Shown here one piece after another: positions 8,601-53,932 of a stretch of DNA of 64,000 bases (position 1 is its first letter; every line of letters starts with the position of its first letter). The notes under the pieces were generated by a model, which did no database searches, was not told where the DNA came from, and was given only the letters and a program-made list of their open reading frames with translations. The position numbers were made by a program, and so were the translations under genes. The stretch comes from Parcubacteria group bacterium (GTDB lineage Bacteria; Patescibacteriota; Minisyncoccia; 2-02-FULL-40-12; IGHO2-01-FULL-4-A), in the NCBI GenBank assembly GCA_043821485.1, contig JBDRCU010000057.1, positions 598 to 64,597 on the forward strand, read 5' to 3'.

Positions 8601-9749
8601 CTACTTCATCTTCCGTCTTATAAACGCTGGAATATCAAAATCATCTTCGTCATCATTGGCCACAGAGCTGTCTACTACCTCTTTTATAGGTTCTCGTTCT
8701 TCTTTTCTATCAATGATAGGGACTCCGTCTGCCATATCACTATATATGCTTTCTGCCGGGGACCTAGTTAATAGATCTTCTACATGAGCAGTGCCTGTCT
8801 TGAATCCAGCAGCAATAACAGTGATCTTGATTTCGCCCTTTTTAAGAGAGTTATCTTCAACTGCGCCGAATATTACTTTTGCATCGGGATCAATACTTGC
8901 TGTAATGATCTTTGCCGCTTCATTTATTTCTGCCATCGCCAAGTCGCTGCCTCCAGAGACATTGAACAGCACTCCATTTGCTCCGTCTATTGAAACATCA
9001 AGCAAAGGAGAGCTTATGGCATCCTTTGCTGCATCGGCTGCTCTATCTTCTCCGCTTGCAACACCTATTCCCATGAGTGCTGATCCTGAATTTGTTAACA
9101 CTGTTTTTACGTCTGCGAAGTCCACGTTAATAATACCTGGTACGGTAATCAAATCTGAAATTCCTTTTACTCCCTGATGAAGTACGTCGTCTACTTTTTG
9201 GAACGCTTCAAGTAAAGGAGTTTTCCTGTCTATTATTGAAAGTAATCTGTCGTTTGAAATTGTAATCAATGCATCTACTTTATTGCGAAGCACTTCCCAG
9301 CCAGCATCAGCAATGCGTGATCGTGCAGCTCCTTCGAATGAAAATGGTTTTGTTACAACACCAATAGTTAATGCTCCAACATCGCGTGCAATTTCTGCTA
9401 TAACTGGTGAAGCGCCTGTTCCTGTTCCTCCTCCAAGTCCTGCAGTTATGAATACCATGTCAGCGCCTTTTAGCGCATCTGAAATTTCATCCTTATTTTC
9501 CATTGCAGCCTGTTTCCCTATCTCAGGATTCATTCCAGCACCCAAACCGCGGGTGATATTCTTACCTATGAGGATTTTATTAGGCGCGCTAGCAATATTG
9601 AGGTCTTGTGCATCGAGATTTACAGCGACAAATTCAACTCCATGTATCTTAGAGGCCATCATTCGTTGGATTGCCTTGTTTCCACCTCCGCCAATACCAA
9701 CGACTTTTATGCGTGCGAAAGTCTCAAAAGTTGGTTTTACCTGAGTCAT
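8601..9749 (-). CDS. ftsZ: cell division GTPase FtsZ
   Basis: Tubulin signature GGGTGTG (GLGGGTGTGASPVIAE) and N-terminal KVVGIGGGGNKAI. Confidence 0.95.
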   Translation of the reverse strand: MTQVKPTFETFARIKVVGIGGGGNKAIQRMMASKIHGVEFVAVNLDAQDLNIASAPNKILIGKNITRGLGAGMNPEIGKQAAMENKDEISDALKGADMVFITAGLGGGTGTGASPVIAEIARDVGALTIGVVTKPFSFEGAARSRIADAGWEVLRNKVDALITISNDRLLSIIDRKTPLLEAFQKVDDVLHQGVKGISDLITVPGIINVDFADVKTVLTNSGSALMGIGVASGEDRAADAAKDAISSPLLDVSIDGANGVLFNVSGGSDLAMAEINEAAKIITASIDPDAKVIFGAVEDNSLKKGEIKITVIAAGFKTGTAHVEDLLTRSPAESIYSDMADGVPIIDRKEEREPIKEVVDSSVANDDEDDFDIPAFIRRKMK

Positions 9750-9862
9750 AGTGCTACCGGTTTAGCATATCTATCCAGATAAAACAAGACAGAGGCAAAT
9801 GTCCCTGTTTTCTACCTGTGGATAAACCCCTGATTTCTGTGGATATCTGGGATTTTTGAGCT

Positions 9863-12750: not shown

Positions 12751-14130
12751 TTATCTTCCTTTAGTTTTTTGTTTGATTATTTCAATCACTTTTTCGACAG
12801 GCACTGTTTCTTGTACTCCCGTACCCATTTCGCGAATAATTACTGAACCATCCAAAGCTTCTTTCTGGCCCATGATTATTGTGTATGGAATATTAAGGCG
12901 GTTAGAAACCCGAAGTTGTGCCTTTATGCTGTCTCGGCCGAATGATGATTTTGCAGATACTCCTGAACGTCTGAATTCTTCAAACAATGCCAGACTTTTT
13001 CTTTTTGCCAGTTCTCCTAATTGTGCAATAAATACCTTCGGGGGTTTTTTAGATGATGCAGGTTCGATCTTTTGGATTTTTAATGCGAGTATGATTCTTT
13101 CAATTCCCATTCCCCAGCCAATGGCAGGAGTCTTCGGCCCTCCCATGTGTTCAACTAATTTATCGTATCTACCTCCCCCGCCAAGAGCTAGTGGTTCTGA
13201 TTTGGGTTTTTCGTTTTCTTTTTTTGTTTTAATCTTCTTTTCTTCCTCTTCGCCTTCTTTTTTTTCATCTTCTTTTTCTTCTTTCTCATTTTCTTTCTCT
13301 ACTATTATTTCAAAAGTCGTACGAGTATAGTAATCAAGTCCTCGTACCAGCGTATGATCGAGCAGATAAGGAACTTCGAGCTCATCAAGGAATTCGAGAA
13401 CTCCTTTGAAGTGCTTCTTGCAGTCTTCATCCAGATATTCAAGGAATTGAGGAGCGTTCTTAATATGTTCTTGGCAGTCTGGTTTCTTGCAATCTAGAAC
13501 TCGCAAAGGATTTGATTTAATTCTTTTTAGACATTGGGCACATATCCTTTTAGCTGATCCTCTATAGTGATCTTTTAGAGCCTTAATATATTGGGGCCTG
13601 CAATCTGCATCTCCAATGCTATTGAGTTTTACAATGAGGTTCTTGACACCAAGACTTTCAAGGATTTTATATTGAATAAATATTGCTTGTGCATCGGCCG
13701 CAGGCATCTCATCTCCAAATATTTCAAGGTTTAACTGATAGTGCTGTCTTAGGCGTCCGGCTTGAGGATTCTCATGTCTGAACAATGGGCCATGAGTCCA
13801 TAACTGTACAGGGTGAGGCATTGTATGCATACCATGTTCAATGTAGGCGCGTACAATTCCTGCAGTGAATTCCGGGCGAAGCGAAAGTCTATCCCCTCCC
13901 TTGGTGCGCAGATTGTACATTTCTTTTTCTACAATATCAGTTGCTTCGCCGACTGAACGTACGAATAGGTCGGTTTGTTCGAGTATTGGAGTATCAATTC
14001 GTCTGAAACTATAGTCTTCAAAAATACCTTTTGCTTTTTTAATAATAAACTCCCAATACTGCTGATCGTGGGGCAATATATCGTGCATTCCTTTCACTGA
14101 CTGAATCTGTAACTTTTTGACTCTTGGCAT
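12751..14130 (-). CDS. hisS: histidyl-tRNA synthetase with an E/K-rich low-complexity insertion
   Basis: Class II aaRS motifs (MHDILP, RYDKL..., GGGRYD). The start is placed at ATG 14130 (MPRVKK) rather than the ORF-track start at 14196, which would overlap lepB by 40 nt. The insertion EKENEKEEKEDEKKEGEEEEKKIKTKKENEKPKSEP is encoded by a ~130-nt polypurine tract (13200..13330). Confidence 0.85.
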   Translation of the reverse strand: MPRVKKLQIQSVKGMHDILPHDQQYWEFIIKKAKGIFEDYSFRRIDTPILEQTDLFVRSVGEATDIVEKEMYNLRTKGGDRLSLRPEFTAGIVRAYIEHGMHTMPHPVQLWTHGPLFRHENPQAGRLRQHYQLNLEIFGDEMPAADAQAIFIQYKILESLGVKNLIVKLNSIGDADCRPQYIKALKDHYRGSAKRICAQCLKRIKSNPLRVLDCKKPDCQEHIKNAPQFLEYLDEDCKKHFKGVLEFLDELEVPYLLDHTLVRGLDYYTRTTFEIIVEKENEKEEKEDEKKEGEEEEKKIKTKKENEKPKSEPLALGGGGRYDKLVEHMGGPKTPAIGWGMGIERIILALKIQKIEPASSKKPPKVFIAQLGELAKRKSLALFEEFRRSGVSAKSSFGRDSIKAQLRVSNRLNIPYTIIMGQKEALDGSVIIREMGTGVQETVPVEKVIEIIKQKTKGR

Positions 14131-14155
14131 ATTTTTGTTATTTAACCGTATTAAA

Positions 14156-14851
14156 TTAGATATCGTAATCAGGCGTATCAAATCCTGAGATAGCATTCAA
14201 TGGCCATGCCCTGAACCAAACTTCTCCTGTGATCAAGGATTCATTCACAGGTCCCCAGAAACGGGAGTCAGAACTATGTCTGCGATTATCTCCTAATACA
14301 TAATATTCATTGGGATCCAATTTGGTTAAGAGATTTCCAATTGTTTGCTGGTCAGGAGAAAGATAACTGCTTTCATCTAGAGTTACGCCTTCGGGATGCA
14401 AGGTATTGTAGATCGTGACATTGTTGTCTTTAATTTCTATTGTTTCACTTGGAAGACCAATGATTCGTTTTATGAAAAAGTTTTTAGGGTCTTCAGGGAA
14501 TCGGAATATTACTACGTCCCCACGTTCAGGTTCGTCATCTGTAAAGCGATAACTGAATTCATTGATTATGATATAGTCGCCGTCGTGAAAATTTTCTTCC
14601 ATGGAAGCACCTTTTACATAGAATGGTTGGATTATGAAATATCGGATTGGGATAATTATGACAAGAGCAATAATGACTATCTTTATTATCTCCCATATAA
14701 AAGCAAGGCTTTTATAGCCTGTTGTGAAGTCGTCTTTTAGGAATTCTTCATCTGGTGGTCCGGCTTCCGGCGTGCCAGTTGGTGTATCGCCATCTGAATA
14801 TGCACCCAAGCCTGATAGATCAGGACCATTTTTAAGTAGATCTTCTGACAT
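14156..14851 (-). CDS. lepB: signal peptidase I
   Basis: S26 motifs (GASMEENFHDGD, RGDVVIF, YYVLGDNRRHSSDSR). Confidence 0.85.
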   Translation of the reverse strand: MSEDLLKNGPDLSGLGAYSDGDTPTGTPEAGPPDEEFLKDDFTTGYKSLAFIWEIIKIVIIALVIIIPIRYFIIQPFYVKGASMEENFHDGDYIIINEFSYRFTDDEPERGDVVIFRFPEDPKNFFIKRIIGLPSETIEIKDNNVTIYNTLHPEGVTLDESSYLSPDQQTIGNLLTKLDPNEYYVLGDNRRHSSDSRFWGPVNESLITGEVWFRAWPLNAISGFDTPDYDI

Positions 14852-14964
14852 AAATATGTGAAGTGAAGTTAATTATATCATAAAAATTCGTGAAATCAAT
14901 GCGTGTTTTTGGTATAAAAACGAAAACGCCGTGAGAACTGCGACGAATTCGTCGCCGTGCCTTC

Positions 14965-15327
14965 TCACGACGGTAGGTACCTTATCTGATCGGTCTGTTT
15001 GGGACTCCTGTAGAGCCCTTCGAGCAGTTCTGTTCCGGTGATGCCCGCCTCTTTGTAGAGTCGGCAGAACCTAATAGTATCCACTAGAACGGGTCGGTTT
15101 CGTCCCTCTTCTGCTGGCCAGAACCAATGCCAGCGCCTGCAAACCGAGCATTCCAGTGATATGGCTTCGGGCTCGCTACGGCATGGTTTCCATATCGTCG
15201 GAATCTTACACAGCCTCTCTCCGCACATGAGGCAGTACATCGCGACCTCCTTGAATGTTGCAAAGAGCCTAGCACTAGTATCTAAAATTGGAAAGACCCG
15301 TGGGGCCGGCGCGTCAGCGCCGACCAC
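14965..15327 (-). CDS. Cys-rich hypothetical protein (possible zinc-binding) in GC-rich island
   Basis: CLMCGERLC...CSVCRRWHW clusters. GC content is far above surrounding genes. It is co-oriented with the downstream PurM-like gene. Confidence 0.4.
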   Translation of the reverse strand: MVGADAPAPRVFPILDTSARLFATFKEVAMYCLMCGERLCKIPTIWKPCRSEPEAISLECSVCRRWHWFWPAEEGRNRPVLVDTIRFCRLYKEAGITGTELLEGLYRSPKQTDQIRYLPS

Positions 15328-15383
15328 ACGGGCCAGGGTGCTGGTTATGTTGGTATATGTACTGTTCCGGCGTATGCTCCTTC

Positions 15384-16598
15384 TTATTCGCCGGGAGTCT
15401 TCAGGCTCAGCGTTTCACGATCGCTGAATCTGGACTCGATAATGAGCTTTTGATCGGGGACGCCGGCGTGGACAGTTTTCCCCACAACCATAGCCTCGTG
15501 CCCGTCTTTCCATGCCTCCTCACAGATCCTTTGGACATCCGTTGGTTCGCAGATGACGAACATACCACAACCGCCATGGAAGGTGTTGTAGCAGTCGTAG
15601 TCGCTCAGAGGTGAGTCGCCGCACTGTAGTGAGAGGGACTGTGCTTTGAGCAGAACTTCCGGTGCTTCGGGCATCTGGTCCAGGTGTACGCCAATCCCTT
15701 CAGGCAACAGTTCTCCGAGCTTGCTCCATACACCCCCACCGGTGACGTGCGCGATGCCGTGGATGCGGGCCAGTGGTGGGCCGGGTTCGCCATCTTGAGT
15801 CCAGCCCAGGAGTCGTGTGATCGTCCTGGCATAGCTCCGTGAGGGAACAGTGAGCTTTTTCACGTATGCCATGGCGGTTGCATTGTTCGAGATCAAATCG
15901 ATTTCCGGTCCCCACGTGCCCAGGACGATATTGGTCAGGGCTGTACCACCGTTGCAGCGGTAACCGAACTCCCTGAAGCCCACGACTGCCATTCCCGAGT
16001 TGATACTGGAACCGTCGATTCGCAGGTCGGTCCTGGTAAGACCGATGCATGTTCCGCCCCACGTAAGCACGAGTTGACCATCGCTGTCGGTGTCGCAGAA
16101 GGCAGTGATGCTGTGCTTCATGACCGCGGTTTCGCCAGTGATGTTTGCAAGTCCGGCTTGCCGAAGGGCTGCGCCATGGCCGTTCCACAGGGCACGGCAT
16201 AGATGGATGTTTTTGGCGGTGACCCTTTTGACGTTCAGGTCATTCGCCATGATGGCCGGGAAGCCGCCGCCTGCCACAACGTCGTCGGCGTTCATGGTGA
16301 TGATTTCCCAGCCGAGATCGTTGAAGGCTTCCTCTTCGTTCAGAAGCGTGAAGAACTGGGGCTTGCCTCCGGCTCCATCGTTTTGGACCGTCTCGCGGAC
16401 ACGACGATCAATCATCAACTTGAGGATGTGCTCCCTCCAGAGGAATTCGGGCAAGCCACCGCGGAAATGTCCTGTCTGCTGTGGGTAAATCGTCACAGCT
16501 GGACAGTTTCCACTGCTTGCCAAGCAGACTTGATGTCCGAGTCTAGACATCTCATCGCCGGGATTGATTACTTCGGACCTGTAGCTCATTCTTTGCAC
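15384..16598 (-). CDS. PurM-like (AIR synthase-related) ATP-binding protein of unknown function, GC-rich (probably horizontally acquired)
   Basis: PurM superfamily motifs MNADDVVAGGGFPA and HVTGGGVW. Not obviously SelD (no GAGCGCK) or HypE (no C-terminal Cys). Many overlapping shadow ORFs in the ORF track reflect the high GC. Confidence 0.7.
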   Translation of the reverse strand: MQRMSYRSEVINPGDEMSRLGHQVCLASSGNCPAVTIYPQQTGHFRGGLPEFLWREHILKLMIDRRVRETVQNDGAGGKPQFFTLLNEEEAFNDLGWEIITMNADDVVAGGGFPAIMANDLNVKRVTAKNIHLCRALWNGHGAALRQAGLANITGETAVMKHSITAFCDTDSDGQLVLTWGGTCIGLTRTDLRIDGSSINSGMAVVGFREFGYRCNGGTALTNIVLGTWGPEIDLISNNATAMAYVKKLTVPSRSYARTITRLLGWTQDGEPGPPLARIHGIAHVTGGGVWSKLGELLPEGIGVHLDQMPEAPEVLLKAQSLSLQCGDSPLSDYDCYNTFHGGCGMFVICEPTDVQRICEEAWKDGHEAMVVGKTVHAGVPDQKLIIESRFSDRETLSLKTPGE

Positions 16599-16649
16599 CT
16601 CCGTATTTTTGGCTTATTGCCGAAGACCTTGCTTCAAGGGTAATGATTT

Positions 16650-17246
16650 GTGGAAAATAATCAATGGCTGTACACTATTTACATGTTATTAATCGTTGGG
16701 CTTGGGAATCCGGGAGATAAATATATAGGTACGCGGCATAATATTGGTTTTGCTGTGGTGGATGGTTTTGCCAATGAAGTTGGCCTATCTTTTGAATACT
16801 ATAAGAAGCTTGATGCATATATTGCTCGTGGTGACTGGAATGAACATGAATTAATAATTTTGAAGCCAAAGACATTTATGAATAATTCAGGATTGGCAAT
16901 AAAGAAGTTTCTTGATTTCTATAAAAACACTCCTGATAAAATGATTGTTGTTCATGATGATTTGGATTTGCCTTTTGGTACAGTAAAGATGTCGCATTCA
17001 AGTTCTAGTGCAGGACATAATGGAGTGGAGTCAATAGTGGATCATCTTAAGACACAAGAATTTTCAAGATTGCGAATAGGAGTTGCAAATGGTGTACTTG
17101 ATCGTGCACGCAAGCAAGAGCCAGTAGCTGTTAAGAAAAAAGCAGTTGGAGACTTTGTGCTTTCTAAATTTGGATTTTTTGAAAAGGTAAAATTGAAAAA
17201 GGTTTTGGAGCGTGCCATTGAGGCGCTCAAAAATCTTGATACCTGA
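16650..17246 (+). CDS. pth: peptidyl-tRNA hydrolase
   Basis: N-terminal LIVGLGNPGDKYIGTRHNIGF signature. Confidence 0.9.
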   Translation: MENNQWLYTIYMLLIVGLGNPGDKYIGTRHNIGFAVVDGFANEVGLSFEYYKKLDAYIARGDWNEHELIILKPKTFMNNSGLAIKKFLDFYKNTPDKMIVVHDDLDLPFGTVKMSHSSSSAGHNGVESIVDHLKTQEFSRLRIGVANGVLDRARKQEPVAVKKKAVGDFVLSKFGFFEKVKLKKVLERAIEALKNLDT

Positions 17247-18348
17247 CAGAGATAATCTCAAATATCTTAATGCAATAAATATCGTTGTTGACGGTAATGT
17301 TTTGGCGCTTGAGCGGATAAATAGTGCATTTGATGGGGATTGGGAAGGTGCGTGGAGCGCAGATCTTAGTTCATTTATTAGAGATGCTGTGGGTCGTGAG
17401 GGAAGCTTTACTAGTTGTGATAGGGAGCGTCGTAGAAATAGGCAAAGACGTCTCAATATCGAGAGCGAATGGCAGTACCTTGAGCGTGATGGTATTGACA
17501 TGATTACGATTTTGGATAAGGATTACCCGACGTCTTTGAGATCCATACACAATCCCCCGTTTCTATTGTATGTGCGTGGATCACGTAAGGCCTTACAGTC
17601 AGAGTCTTTCGCGGTTGTTGGCACAAGGCTAGTATCTGATTACGGCAAGCAAGCTACAGAGCATATCGTTGGTCCAGTCTCTCGTGCTGGGCTTACCATT
17701 GTAAGCGGTTTGGCTTATGGCATTGATGCTATTGCGCATAAGACTGCATTAGATGAAGGAGGTCTGACTGTAGCAGTTTTAGCTACATATATAGCGGATA
17801 GGTCAATTTGTCCTAGAGTAAATTTTGCTCTAGCACAAAGGATCATCAAACAAGGCGGAGCATTAATATCGGAATTCCCGCGTGGATATCAAACGCAGAG
17901 GTTTTCATTCCCACAACGCAATCGTATAGTCAGTGGTTTGTCGCGTGGAGTGCTTGTGGTTGAAGGGAGTTTTAAAAGCGGAACAATGCTTACTGCTAAA
18001 CATGCCATTGATCAGAATAGAGATGTTTTCGCAGTGCCCGGATCTATTTTTAAAAAGAATTCACAGGGTACTAATTGGTTAATTAATAGAGGAGCAAAGC
18101 TTGTGACAAGCAGTGAAGATATATTGGAAGATTATGGATTAATTCAGGAGCAAAAACAGCTTGAAGTCGAACCAGAAGACGAAAACGAGAAAAAGATTTT
18201 AGCAGTTATCAAGCAAAACTCCTTGACAGCAGATGAGATAGTAAGGGAAACTGGTTTAAGTACATCAATTGTCAGTGCAACTTTGATGATAATGGAAATG
18301 GATAAGAAGGTTCGCAATACGAATGATGGAAAGTATGAAATGTTTTAA
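17212..18348 (+). CDS. dprA: DNA processing protein DprA (Smf); true start may be downstream of 17212
   Basis: Rossmann-like DprA core (VVGTRLVSDYGKQ, VVEGSFKSGTMLTA, AVPGSI) and a C-terminal winged helix. Confidence 0.85.
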   Translation: MPLRRSKILIPDRDNLKYLNAINIVVDGNVLALERINSAFDGDWEGAWSADLSSFIRDAVGREGSFTSCDRERRRNRQRRLNIESEWQYLERDGIDMITILDKDYPTSLRSIHNPPFLLYVRGSRKALQSESFAVVGTRLVSDYGKQATEHIVGPVSRAGLTIVSGLAYGIDAIAHKTALDEGGLTVAVLATYIADRSICPRVNFALAQRIIKQGGALISEFPRGYQTQRFSFPQRNRIVSGLSRGVLVVEGSFKSGTMLTAKHAIDQNRDVFAVPGSIFKKNSQGTNWLINRGAKLVTSSEDILEDYGLIQEQKQLEVEPEDENEKKILAVIKQNSLTADEIVRETGLSTSIVSATLMIMEMDKKVRNTNDGKYEMF

Positions 18349-23005: not shown

Positions 23006-23034
23006 TTGACAGTGGAGATCTCAAAATGTTAGCA
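23006..23034 (+). promoter_or_regulatory. sigma70-like promoter (TTGACA-17-TTAGCAT) plus tandem direct repeats TCCATATATAA/TCCATATATCA (23044..23065), candidate operator of the RHH antitoxin
   Basis: Consensus -35 hexamer, 17-nt spacer, A/T-rich -10 region. Two 11-nt direct repeats lie immediately before the antitoxin start. Confidence 0.4.
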
Positions 23035-23064
23035 TATATAAGATCCATATATAATCCATATATC

Positions 23065-23319
23065 ATGCCTATTGTGAATTTTACAGTACCGACCACCCTC
23101 GAGAGAAGAATCGTTAGTGGTATTAAGAAAAACGGCTTTTCCAGTAAAGCTGAATTTTTTCGTATGGCAGCACTTCGCTATTTACAGGAGCTTGAAATGT
23201 TAGGTATGACGTCAGATCAACGGAGAAGTTATCTCGTAAAACAAATTGATAAGCATATGACCAGACTGTACAAAGGCAAAAAGATTCCGTCGCTCGAAGA
23301 GCAGCTTGCGGATATCTGA
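23065..23319 (+). CDS. ribbon-helix-helix (CopG/Arc-like) antitoxin
   Basis: MPIVNFTVPTTLERRIV beta-strand N-terminus typical of RHH. The start is chosen at the internal ATG 23065 because the upstream part of the ORF is tandem repeats. Confidence 0.55.
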   Translation: MPIVNFTVPTTLERRIVSGIKKNGFSSKAEFFRMAALRYLQELEMLGMTSDQRRSYLVKQIDKHMTRLYKGKKIPSLEEQLADI

Positions 23320-23322
23320 CAT

Positions 23323-23673
23323 ATGCCCAGAGTTGTCATACTCCCCTATTTTTTAAAAAGTGCTAAGGGTTACCTAAAGAAGTATCGCAGTTTAGAGCGT
23401 ACTATTGTTGATGTCTTGGGAAGATTCAGCCCATCCCATCACGTTCATCTAGGTAACAATATTTATAAAGTACGTTTTTCAATTAAAGAAATTACAAAGG
23501 GAAAAAGCAAAGTATTCAGATTGATACTGCGTCTTACTTCGGATCATAAATTTTTGATACCCGTATTTATGTATTTCAAAGGAGATCGTGAGACTGTAAG
23601 TGATAATGAGATAAATGAACATCTCTCAGAGATATTATTAGAGCTTAAAGAATTCGAGAGAACTTTGAATTAG
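23323..23673 (+). CDS. RelE/ParE-superfamily toxin-like protein (paralog of 21534..21866)
   Basis: Shared motifs with the first toxin-like ORF. It starts 4 nt after the RHH gene. Confidence 0.6.
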   Translation: MPRVVILPYFLKSAKGYLKKYRSLERTIVDVLGRFSPSHHVHLGNNIYKVRFSIKEITKGKSKVFRLILRLTSDHKFLIPVFMYFKGDRETVSDNEINEHLSEILLELKEFERTLN

Positions 23674-23763: not shown

Positions 23764-24486
23764 TTAGTGTTGCGCCCACATGTCGTAGCAGGTCTTGCCG
23801 CCGGTTTCGCAGTCCAGCGACGCGACGTTATTGGTCTTGGCGGAATAGTGGTAGCAGGTGTAGTAGCACTGCCATATGCTTCCGTAGATACGATAAGGGC
23901 CGCAGGGTAGGTCGTTGAGCCTGCGGAATGTCACCTTGGCCTTTGCTTGGGCTGGCAGATATACGTACCCCAGGTAGTAGTACCTGGAGCACTCTACATT
24001 GAGGACCCAGAGGTCAACGTAGCTTCCGGCGTAGTATTCCTCTTTGCCGAATTTTTTAAACAGCTTGATCGTGATTTTCTTCCGGTTCATCCGGAAGTCT
24101 TCGATCCTGAACATCTCCCAGTTTGTCTCATCTACCGCGTTGGCGGTCTGGGCGGTGTCGCCGTTCAGGACGAGAGCCGAGGAGGCAGTGGACAGGCTGT
24201 CCATCTTCGCCTCGAATTCGTTCTTCGCCACGGTGGCCCCGGGCATCAGTCCGAAGACCTCATCAGGGCGATCCGTTTTTCCTTCGAATTCCTGTTCGTT
24301 CAGGAGTTCGATGTCGCGGAAGCTTCCCTGTTCGCCGTCAGTGAAGGGGGTGGGCGCGTGGTCGGCGGTCAGGTTGCTGCCGATTTCCCCGAGCGTGTCG
24401 GGGGTGACCGGATTCGAGCTGCAAGCTGCGAACGTCATCATCGCTACCACGATCAAGATCTGGAAACCGAAACCGTTCTGTCTCAT
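23764..24486 (-). CDS. lipoprotein of unknown function, GC-rich (foreign)
   Basis: Signal peptide with lipobox FAAC. Multiple C-terminal Cys (CGPYRIYGSIWQCYYTCYHY...C...C). GC content far above the host. Flanked by GC hairpins at 23690..23725 and 23740..23765. Confidence 0.55.
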   Translation of the reverse strand: MRQNGFGFQILIVVAMMTFAACSSNPVTPDTLGEIGSNLTADHAPTPFTDGEQGSFRDIELLNEQEFEGKTDRPDEVFGLMPGATVAKNEFEAKMDSLSTASSALVLNGDTAQTANAVDETNWEMFRIEDFRMNRKKITIKLFKKFGKEEYYAGSYVDLWVLNVECSRYYYLGYVYLPAQAKAKVTFRRLNDLPCGPYRIYGSIWQCYYTCYHYSAKTNNVASLDCETGGKTCYDMWAQH

Positions 24487-52753: not shown

Positions 52754-53133
52754 GGGCTTGAAAGGCTTCGATGGAGGTTCATTTACAGGATTGAGCACGT
52801 CGAGTTTACCGATGTCTCGTAAATAATGTCGGTGCAAGATAAGTGCAAACACATCTTATCAAATGCCATCTATGGCAGGAATGTCACAAATGGCAGTAGC
52901 ATAACTTTTTAGTATAGCTACCGTCTTACCTCGGATTCTCGCTAGGGGGATAAGGCGTCATTAGCGAGAAACTTTGCCTGCTATTACTATGACGGCAGAA
53001 CATCGCAATTCCCATAGTACATTGCCTGAGCTTTTGTTCATTCCTTATCAGGCGGTGTAAATCGGAATGAACTAAACGTGTAGTATCATCTTGTATCAAC
53101 TTTCAGACGGGGGTTCGATTCCCCCCGAGTCCA
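52754..53133 (+). ncRNA. ssrA: tmRNA (ssrA)
   Basis: 5' GGGCUUGAAAGGCUUCGAUGGAGG resembles the tmRNA 5' end. The acceptor stem GGGCUUG/CGAGUCC contains a G3:U pair. T-arm GGGGGUUCGAUUCCCCC, discriminator A. The candidate tag reading frame 52845..52904 encodes ANTSYQMPSMAGMSQMAVA then a UAA stop. Confidence 0.8.
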
Positions 53134-53137
53134 CAAA
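53124..53137. repeat. left copy of 14-nt direct repeat CCCGAGTCCACAAA (tmRNA 3' end, attL-like)
   Basis: Identical copy at 53919..53932. Confidence 0.7.
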
Positions 53138-53139
53138 CG

Positions 53140-53172
53140 AAATAACCCTTATTTTACGGGGGTTATTTTTGT
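53140..53172 (+). terminator. terminator hairpin after tmRNA (AAATAACCC-ttattttac-GGGGGTTATTTTT)
   Basis: Near-identical (28/32) to the hairpin after tRNA-fMet at 1286..1317. Confidence 0.6.
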
Positions 53173-53286
53173 TGACTCCCAGGGATATTTGAACCTTTTC
53201 AAACAAAAAAGCGTCACAGGTGTGATGCTCTTTTGATTCTGGGCGACCCCTGATTGCTCGTGTGAGCAGGGGTCGCCCATCTGTAC

Positions 53287-53670
53287 TTACTGGGCGGTAG
53301 CAGCCGCCCGGCTTTCGACCCACTCTCTACTCACCACATGGGCGAGCAAGTAGTTCACGGCCTCCTGTAACGCGGAGGCCCTCATGAACTCGTAGGTGGG
53401 GTCCTTTTGGACCCCGAGCTTCATCGCCGAGAGGCCGTAGCCCAGGGCATTGACGCCCTTTAACTGGCCTCTGCCGTTGCTGTCCAAGCACTTGTCAATG
53501 TGCTTGGTGGCATTGTCGACGAGTTTCAGGAACTCATCGACATCGACGTCGTACTTGGCCAGGACATCCATTGCCTTGGCCAGATCATCTATTGGGTTAC
53601 CATGGACCATGAGGACCATGGCAGAGAGGGAGCTGAGCTCCCGTTTTGTGGTGTGATGCACGTAGGCCAT
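53287..53670 (-). CDS. hypothetical protein (127 aa), GC-rich, inside tmRNA-associated insert
   Basis: ORF with GC content far above the host; no motifs. Confidence 0.45.
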   Translation of the reverse strand: MAYVHHTTKRELSSLSAMVLMVHGNPIDDLAKAMDVLAKYDVDVDEFLKLVDNATKHIDKCLDSNGRGQLKGVNALGYGLSAMKLGVQKDPTYEFMRASALQEAVNYLLAHVVSREWVESRAAATAQ

Positions 53671-53918
53671 TTTTGGCCTCCTTTTTTAAAGTACCCCACC
53701 CCTAACGAGGTTTCGGGGTTAATTTTTGCTTTTCGCTATAGACACAATGCCTATGCGAGTACAGCCCCCTTCCCGGGTCTTCTGTCAATTTAATGTATAT
53801 TATAACATATAATATATTCTTTTGTCAACCTCATATATAGTAGATTCAAACTTCAATTACACCACCCAATTCCCAAAAACCCCTCATCTCCCTCACCAAA
53901 AGGTTCATATTAAAACAT

Positions 53919-53932
53919 CCCGAGTCCACAAA
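53919..53932. repeat. right copy of 14-nt direct repeat CCCGAGTCCACAAA (attR-like), followed by a second terminator-like hairpin 53941..53967
   Basis: Exact match to the tmRNA 3' end. Followed by TAAAACACCC-ttttg-GGTGTTTTATA. Confidence 0.7.

Follow-up and report, generated by a model that had tools for sequence, protein, structure and literature searches.

In a 64,000-nucleotide stretch of contig JBDRCU010000057.1 from a Parcubacteria group bacterium (hereafter the window), the spacer between the divergent genes lepB and pth holds an islet of high G+C content (GC) that carries two genes on the minus strand, one for a 401-aa PurM-like protein and, 3' of it, one for a 91-aa zinc-ribbon protein. 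The islet spans positions ~14907..16658 (~1.75 kb), with its ends placed to within ~30 nt from the GC profile, GC at third codon positions (GC3), and spacer length. On its left lies the host gene lepB (signal peptidase I; 14156..14851, minus strand), recognized from its ORF (open reading frame), its relatives, and the conserved gene order, and on its right the host gene pth (peptidyl-tRNA hydrolase; 16683..17246, plus strand), whose ORF begins MLLIVGLGNPG and whose relatives align from residue 1. The overall order is HIT, hisS, and lepB on the minus strand followed by pth, dprA, and topA on the plus strand.

The composition of the islet differs sharply from its surroundings. GC is 0.55-0.57 (0.566 at the 1-kb scale) versus ~0.40 elsewhere in the window, and in 100-nt intervals it rises from 0.31 (14850-14949) to 0.49-0.65 (14900-16600) and returns to 0.36 at 16600. 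The abrupt high-GC shift with shadow ORFs on both strands, as described in an earlier sequence-only reading of this DNA, is thus borne out. This shift is not an amino-acid effect, since GC3 is 0.66 in the PurM-like ORF and 0.60 in the small ORF, compared with 0.29-0.35 in hisS, lepB, pth, dprA, and topA. The 51 other long ORFs of the window have a mean GC3 of 0.357, and the PurM-like gene lies 3.1 standard deviations above the host mean, calculated over 54 long window ORFs and including two other outliers.

Related genomes retain the site without the islet. Scanning JGI metagenome contigs with LepB yielded 55 related loci (LepB identity 43-64%, and up to 75% where the match is partial), among which the topA-dprA-pth/lepB-hisS-HIT order is kept. 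The start-to-start distance between pth and lepB, which is 1831 bp in the window, has a median of 82 bp across the 45 related loci with both genes and ranges from 47 to 279 bp in 43 of them, while in the remaining two (629 and 1181 bp) the intervening sequence is unrelated and host-like. None of the 55 loci had a match to the PurM-like or the small protein. A spacer that measures 1831 bp here and 47-279 bp in nearly all relatives (43 of 45) marks the islet as an insertion, and the empty site together with the GC3 contrast shows that ~1.75 kb were acquired recently. The islet is therefore compositionally foreign DNA acquired by gene transfer, as the sequence-only reading had proposed. The pth/lepB spacer also tolerates other insertions, since two related loci carry different ones there, both of host composition: L073 (3834-5016), with a 332-aa gene that has a membrane anchor, and L108 (2849-3479), with a 73-aa ORF.

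Just outside the left end of the islet, a consensus scan identified a promoter-like site of lepB (TTGATT, 16 nt, TG-TATAAT; 10/12 matches) at 14872..14899 on the minus strand. An imperfect 13-nt direct repeat brackets the islet on the plus strand, with a left copy AATCAATGCGTGT at 14894..14906 and a right copy AATCAATGGCTGT at 16659..16671, and its degenerate pattern is found mismatch-free at these two sites only. We considered this repeat as a target-site duplication and rejected it as not significant, 11% of shuffled flanks reaching the same 11/13 match. The closest tRNA gene is 4 kb away, and an Rfam search of positions 14000-17500 at a permissive threshold detected no hidden RNA element.

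Both islet genes come with their own expression signals. The longest reading of the PurM-like gene is a 404-aa ORF (15384..16598), which contains the motifs quoted in the sequence-only reading; its GTG at 16598, however, sits within a ribosome-binding site (GGAGGTG, 16596..16602, minus strand) read from the sequence 6 nt ahead of an ATG at 16589. Because this site precedes the ATG and homologues align from the corresponding Met, the gene most likely runs from 16589 to 15384 on the minus strand and encodes 401 aa. It is followed by a terminator-like 17-bp GC-rich hairpin and U-rich tract (15281..15334, hairpin 15295-15334, minus strand), and the minus-strand fold of 15241-15400 reaches -59.2 kcal/mol (z -3.4), with 0 of 200 shuffles as stable. 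The small gene (14965..15240, minus strand) had been read as a 120-aa ORF upstream of the PurM-like gene. It lies downstream on that strand, and most likely starts at Met30 of the 120-aa reading (ATG 15240), since a ribosome-binding site AAGGAGGT (15245..15252, minus strand, read from the sequence) stands 4 nt ahead of it and the homologue aligns from residue 1; the 29 extra codons are disfavoured because they overlap the terminator hairpin. At the far end, two inverted repeats (I8 and I9) and RNA folding define an intrinsic terminator of the small gene at 14914..14972 (minus strand). The nested palindromes reported earlier belong to this structure: a perfect 16-bp palindrome, GCGACGAATTCGTCGC (14940-14955; found once in the window versus 0.02 expected), is nested within an inverted repeat (14927-14937 / 14962-14972). 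On the coding (minus) strand, 14927-14972 forms an outer stem of 11 bp, where the small gene has its stop codon, and an inner stem of 6 bp that includes GCGACGAATTCGTCGC, and UUUUCGUUUUU follows directly (fold -28.9 kcal/mol, z -3.0). On the coding strand a U-run follows the stem-loop, which identifies the palindromes as a rho-independent terminator rather than as a recombination structure at the island boundary. With a ribosome-binding site and a terminator each, the two islet genes would be translated and terminated separately.

By both sequence and fold, the nearest relative of the PurM-like protein is canonical PurM and not ThiL, SelD, or HypE. Pfam domains AIRS (PF00586, 34.5 bits) and AIRS_C (PF02769, 41.8 bits) are both detected above cut-off. 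Besides purM, the sole NCBIfam match is thiL (TIGR01379), at 16.3 bits for a cut-off of 184, and only 5 of 37 family members have a thiL match of any kind. Neither SelD nor HypE models in NCBIfam gave a match at E up to 1, and the C-terminus (...SLKTPGE) does not contain the C-terminal Cys motif of HypE, consistent with the lack of SelD and HypE hallmarks in the sequence-only reading. PADLOC defence models matched neither islet protein (E up to 1), and the best PHROG for the larger one is phage purM (PHROG 1207, E 2e-19). A profile search of PDB sequences returned AIR (aminoimidazole ribonucleotide) synthetases, with two entries labelled just AIR synthase or putative PurM. The AlphaFold2 model (predicted local distance difference test, pLDDT, 92.8; predicted template modelling score 0.91) had 31 PurM entries as its top Foldseek matches, three of them labelled "putative", led by E. 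coli PurM 9JZW (E 4e-24, template modelling score (TM) 0.85 on target). The 390 aligned columns with 9JZW indicate that the N-terminal region is covered as well, including a Y...PGD region that we take to be comparable to YKDAGVD of E. coli PurM. For ThiL, SelD, and HypE, no fold match is better than E 4.5e-13 or TM 0.67, the best being E 2e-12 (TM 0.47-0.58) for SelD, and HypE appearing at E 9e-12 (TM 0.54-0.67).

Alignments with PurM from B. anthracis, E. coli, and P. horikoshii show which catalytic and ATP-binding residues the islet protein keeps and which it changes. Kept are DG-G-K (D71, G72, G74, K76), the ATP motif D-x4-G-x-x-P (D103, G108, P111), GETA-M (G152, E153, A155, M157), the Asn of HSNG (N213), and the His of AHxTGGG (H281). 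PDB entry titles give N186 and H239 as mutated in Pyrococcus abyssi PurM, and judging from sequence these two residues most likely correspond to the Asn of HSNG and the His of AHxTGGG. The protein is ~55 residues longer than PurM, and 80 columns are invariant in an alignment of 37 family members including the window copy.

This protein represents a sizeable clade. We identified at least 425 homologues in a search of 5.8 billion clustered proteins, the best 120 of which are 48-58% identical over the full length and originate from Patescibacteria and one Nanoarchaeota metagenome-assembled genome (MAG). Most are unnamed, and the remainder are called "AIR synthase-related protein" at NCBI and "phosphoribosylformylglycinamidine cyclo-ligase" or purM in IMG. 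The exact islet protein has an entry (P0001, MFH1769800.1), from a MAG labelled "Parcubacteria group bacterium", and is known from a single contig. With one genome scanned per GTDB species, we obtained 49 loci, which span many Patescibacteria classes and include a Nanoarchaeota (L019), a Bdellovibrionales (L040), and a Micavibrio (L041) MAG as well as several MAGs deposited under the label "uncultured Gammaproteobacteria". Beyond Patescibacteria, the clade therefore reaches predatory bacteria and a DPANN archaeon. The clade has no curated model, and in the literature on purL and purM in the candidate phyla radiation we found no paper on it.

Gene neighbourhoods tie the clade to purine synthesis. 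The sequence-only reading had suggested such a survey of homologues, which we performed by calling ORFs in 46 loci (6-10 kb per side) and clustering the neighbours. One neighbour alone recurs strongly, a large PurL (~1270-1316 aa) with FGAR-AT_N, linker, two AIRS_C, and GATase_5 domains in precomputed Pfam annotation. It is encoded in 15 of the 46 loci (14 distinct, as L003 and L009 are the same contig), usually 40-170 bp from the PurM-like gene, including a locus from the subclade of the window protein itself (L018), in which purL lies 151 bp upstream. A PurN-type formyltransferase is encoded in four loci, and L042 displays the order purD (GARS_N/A/C), PurM-like gene, purN, purL, which covers de novo purine synthesis from step 2 to step 5 and has the clade member in the purM position. 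No canonical purM was found in any of these loci, as tblastn with residues 53-345 of E. coli PurM matched the PurM-like genes alone. The sequence-only reading had named clustering within canonical PurM or ThiL as something that would refute it, and this is largely what we found, with canonical PurM as the nearest relative and clade members sitting in purN-purL and purD-purN-purL clusters.

The distribution of the clade points to patchy spread, through both vertical and horizontal descent. In a neighbour-joining tree, members from Saccharibacteria, Buchananbacteria, Nanoarchaeota, and proteobacterial MAGs are intermixed. Across loci, GC3 of the PurM-like gene varies from 0.26 to 0.83 and roughly tracks the host, so that many of the copies must be old and ameliorated. 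The excess over the neighbours' GC3 has a median of +0.07 and surpasses +0.10 in 16 of 46 loci, the window (~+0.3) being extreme. In purL-adjacent loci (pairs were listed for L003, L018, L020, L026, L031, L034, L035, L037, L041, L042, and L044), purL and the PurM-like gene have nearly equal GC3, both usually 0.05-0.15 above their neighbours, which suggests that the two may transfer as one module. Across 47 loci, tRNA genes occur about four times as densely within 500 bp of the PurM-like gene (10 in 44.5 kb) as farther away (~0.06 per kb). At L021 the gene sits between 21-nt and 16-nt copies of a tRNA-Thr 3' end; as a general pattern, flanking tRNA 3' fragments were rejected, being convincing in L021 alone and absent in 10 others. 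At L059 it lies between direct copies (8843-9750 and 12758-13665, 3.9 kb apart) of a two-gene unit with 109-aa and 61-aa products, an arrangement that suggests a duplication or a composite mobile segment. Carriage as phage or plasmid cargo was likewise considered and discarded: no clade member was found in IMG/VR, INPHARED, or PLSDB, and the only purM genes in the latter two were canonical (cyanophage purM in INPHARED, 28% identical to the islet protein; ~25% in PLSDB).

The second islet gene is an orphan. Its 91-aa product is predicted, from its homologue and an AlphaFold2 model of modest confidence (pLDDT 69; four short strands, then three helices), to form a zinc ribbon with four Cys (C3, C6, C31, C34) and, after it, three helices. 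Searched exhaustively with phmmer, 1.84 billion representatives yielded one homologue group (P0121-P0123, 87 aa; P0121 42% identical, E 6e-11), which shares five Cys with it (C3, C6, C20, C31, C34). No significant Pfam, PHROG, PADLOC, or PDB fold match was obtained for the small protein, nor any phage match. Relatives were likewise absent from ~55 loci of the PurM-like clade, where a hidden Markov model of the two known small proteins, run against 7665 ORFs of at least 30 aa, found the islet protein alone. The homologues are instead encoded on Patescibacteria-like contigs, in arrays of at least six small orphan genes with no PurM-like gene nearby. Since relatives are missing from ~55 loci and the homologues occur in unrelated contexts, the pairing of the two islet genes represents a one-off co-transfer and not a conserved system. 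That the small protein binds nucleic acids or has a regulatory role is a guess.

The arrays themselves (L116, 6050-9910; L007, 322-1272; L008; L117) have a repeated ~63-85-nt unit ahead of each gene, 60-85% identical between copies and containing TTGAC-N17-TGGTAT promoter-like boxes. The same 87-aa gene has different upstream neighbours in L007 and L008. A tRNA origin of the ~85-nt units in L116 and L007 was discarded, as ARAGORN detected no tRNA and the stems are unpaired.

We propose that a recent ~1.75-kb islet landed in the short pth/lepB promoter spacer of a low-GC Parcubacteria-type genome, bringing two separately terminated and presumably expressed genes from what would be a higher-GC donor. 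The PurM-like protein represents a deep, conserved branch of the PurM family and is a predicted ATP-dependent formylglycinamidine ribonucleotide (FGAM) cyclo-ligase, i.e., an AIR synthetase. By likeness to PurM, which is homodimeric, we assume a homodimer. The protein would bind Mg-ATP through the D-x4-G-x-x-P and DG-G-K loops, phosphorylate the formyl oxygen of FGAM to an iminophosphate, and close the imidazole ring to yield AIR, step 5 of purine synthesis and the step right after PurL. The small zinc-ribbon gene would have travelled on the same DNA, unrelated to its neighbour. We put the probability that this protein is a divergent, catalytically active AIR synthetase at roughly 0.6, mainly because of the purL, purN, and purD neighbours and the lack of canonical purM in these loci.

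Several observations weigh against this proposal. The protein scores 90.1 bits against the purM equivalog model TIGR00878, below the cut-off of 236.35, and is 20-25% identical to characterised PurMs. Three motif residues are replaced throughout the clade, namely the His and Ser of HSNG (E. coli H190 and S191) by Arg211 and Cys212, and the Asn of FNCG by His338, and family-specific insertions of ~15-20 residues occur near 157-175 and 262-275. No other pur gene lies within 6 kb in 31 of the 46 loci, the window included, and tblastn with family PurL and PurN-like queries found neither purL nor purN in the entire window (purD was not searched). Much of de novo purine synthesis is reported to be missing from most, though not all, Patescibacteria (bioRxiv 10.64898/2026.09.16.751625), in which case a lone AIR synthetase would have no substrate. 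As for the insertion itself, neither islet gene is a recombinase (Pfam, NCBIfam, PADLOC, and PHROG matching of both), leaving no integrase, transposase, or significant flanking repeat to account for it. Broadly a PurM-family member by fold, motifs, and neighbourhood, the protein has a score under the equivalog cut-off and two changed catalytic-motif residues, and should be filed as a divergent PurM clade and not as canonical PurM.

Part of this evidence would also fit a neofunctionalised PurM paralogue, performing ATP-dependent carbonyl activation, as PurM does, on another substrate, possibly with the co-mobile large PurL, in host-dependent organisms devoid of the rest of purine synthesis. Its hosts (Patescibacteria, Nanoarchaeota, Micavibrio, and Bdellovibrionales MAGs) belong to lineages that depend on other cells. 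All 37 members tested fall under the purM equivalog cut-off (best E 4.3e-28), the changes of His190 to Arg and Ser191 to Cys are invariant, and the solitary position in 31 of 46 loci, the repeated horizontal transfer indicated by GC3 and the tree, and the purine pathway reported as mostly missing in Patescibacteria (bioRxiv 10.64898/2026.09.16.751625) all agree with such a change of function. Set against this, the purN-purL and purD-purN-purL clusters place the gene exactly where purM would stand, no locus has a canonical purM beside it, the Asn and His mutated in Pyrococcus PurM according to PDB titles are kept, and IMG already labels members purM. We thus consider neofunctionalisation possible but unlikely, and retain divergent AIR synthetase as the preferred assignment. 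A broader version, in which the protein, by itself or together with large PurL, is the hallmark of a mobile module that spreads among host-dependent microbes (Patescibacteria, DPANN, Micavibrio/Bdellovibrio-like predators), its Arg/Cys site acts on a scavenged or non-canonical substrate, and the islet is perhaps one of a set of integrase-less, high-GC, single-gene cassettes at intergenic and tRNA/tmRNA (transfer-messenger RNA)-adjacent sites, with three in this window, is speculative and in our view rather improbable.

The sequence-only reading had likened the pairing to maturation or modification systems with HypE/HypC-like logic, in which the two proteins would form a two-component system. 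The two genes are indeed adjacent, on the same strand, and of common foreign composition, and the small protein has conserved Cys, but this pairing fails to recur in any of ~55 loci, the single homologue group of the small protein resides in orphan-gene arrays without a PurM-like neighbour, and a strong terminator separates the genes. With no HypE or SelD model match, no C-terminal Cys, and a HypE fold match far worse than that of PurM, such a system is hardly credible. That the islet is no real insertion, but either an assembly chimera or an ancestral pair of odd composition, is suggested by the MAG source of the contig and by the exact protein being known from one contig, yet appears very improbable. 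Each junction falls within a single contig and has syntenic host genes next to it, the insert is exactly intergenic and brings ribosome-binding sites and terminators of its own, and the site is empty in 43 of 45 relatives. The window also has two further high-GC single-gene islets, one of them bracketed by an exact 14-nt duplication of the tmRNA 3' end, which shows that such insertions are genuine in this genome.

Compared with known systems, the clade resembles PurM (EC 6.3.3.1; TIGR00878; PDB 1CLI, 9JZW, 2BTU) in its full-length, two-domain AIRS plus AIRS_C fold, in the motifs it keeps, and in adjoining purL, purN, and purD, and departs from it as an often lone, horizontally moving gene with Arg/Cys/His substitutions, insertions, and a score of 90 versus 236 bits. 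Cyanophage PurM auxiliary metabolic genes (PHROG 1207) similarly put PurM-type genes on mobile DNA but are canonical and 28% identical to the islet protein. HypE likewise has a PurM-superfamily fold and ATP-dependent chemistry, with HypC as a small partner; no hyp genes occur at the islet, however, where the neighbours are lepB and pth, and the small protein combines a zinc ribbon with helices instead of the oligonucleotide/oligosaccharide-binding fold of HypC. Uncharacterised "putative PurM" proteins of Bacteroidetes (PDB 3KIZ, 3MDO; 367-389 aa) have a similar length and fold (E ~5e-18) but are 16-19% identical, more distant than bona fide PurMs, and of a different clade. Finally, islets at tRNA or tmRNA 3' ends share the foreign composition, the intergenic location, and the self-contained promoter, gene, and terminator, whereas the islet described here lies away from tRNA genes, carries no integrase, and is flanked by an 11/13 repeat within chance. 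Relative to a site-specific integrative island, it has the foreign composition and the empty site in relatives, and lacks the integrase, the tRNA/tmRNA target, and significant repeats.

What was suspected to be a new maturation system is thus an ordinary, unusually clean, recent gene acquisition in a reduced genome, and its well-defined empty site makes it a useful example of the piecemeal gain of metabolic genes in such genomes. It also draws attention to a large PurM clade without a curated model, yet abundant in public data and named purM by one pipeline. Whether this clade supplies step 5 affects metabolic reconstructions of Patescibacteria and DPANN, which hinge on nucleotide-pathway steps. 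Both the uncharacterised clade and the mini-islet pattern constitute modest leads.

Two other high-GC islets were observed in the window. One (53138-53932, ~795 bp, GC3 0.77) adjoins the 3' end of the tmRNA gene (52754-53136) and is flanked by two exact, direct copies of a 14-nt repeat, CCCGAGTCCACAAA, at 53124-53137 (the tmRNA 3' end) and 53919-53932, which 0 of 400 shuffles reproduced. It includes a near-consensus promoter (TTGACA, 17 nt, TATAAT), hairpin terminators, no integrase, and a gene (53287-53670, minus strand) for a 127-aa orphan protein without homologue in 5.8 billion proteins, and looks like a putative minimal integrative cassette. The other is a single-gene islet (23764-24486, minus strand; GC 0.56, GC3 0.77) encoding a 240-aa product with a lipoprotein-type signal peptide and no Pfam match. 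A flanking repeat was searched for around this gene and not found; the gene comes with a promoter-like site, a ribosome-binding site, and a double hairpin terminator of its own. Beside it (23026-23673, plus strand) is a small gene pair, one member of which has a weak RelE-like match (E 0.007).

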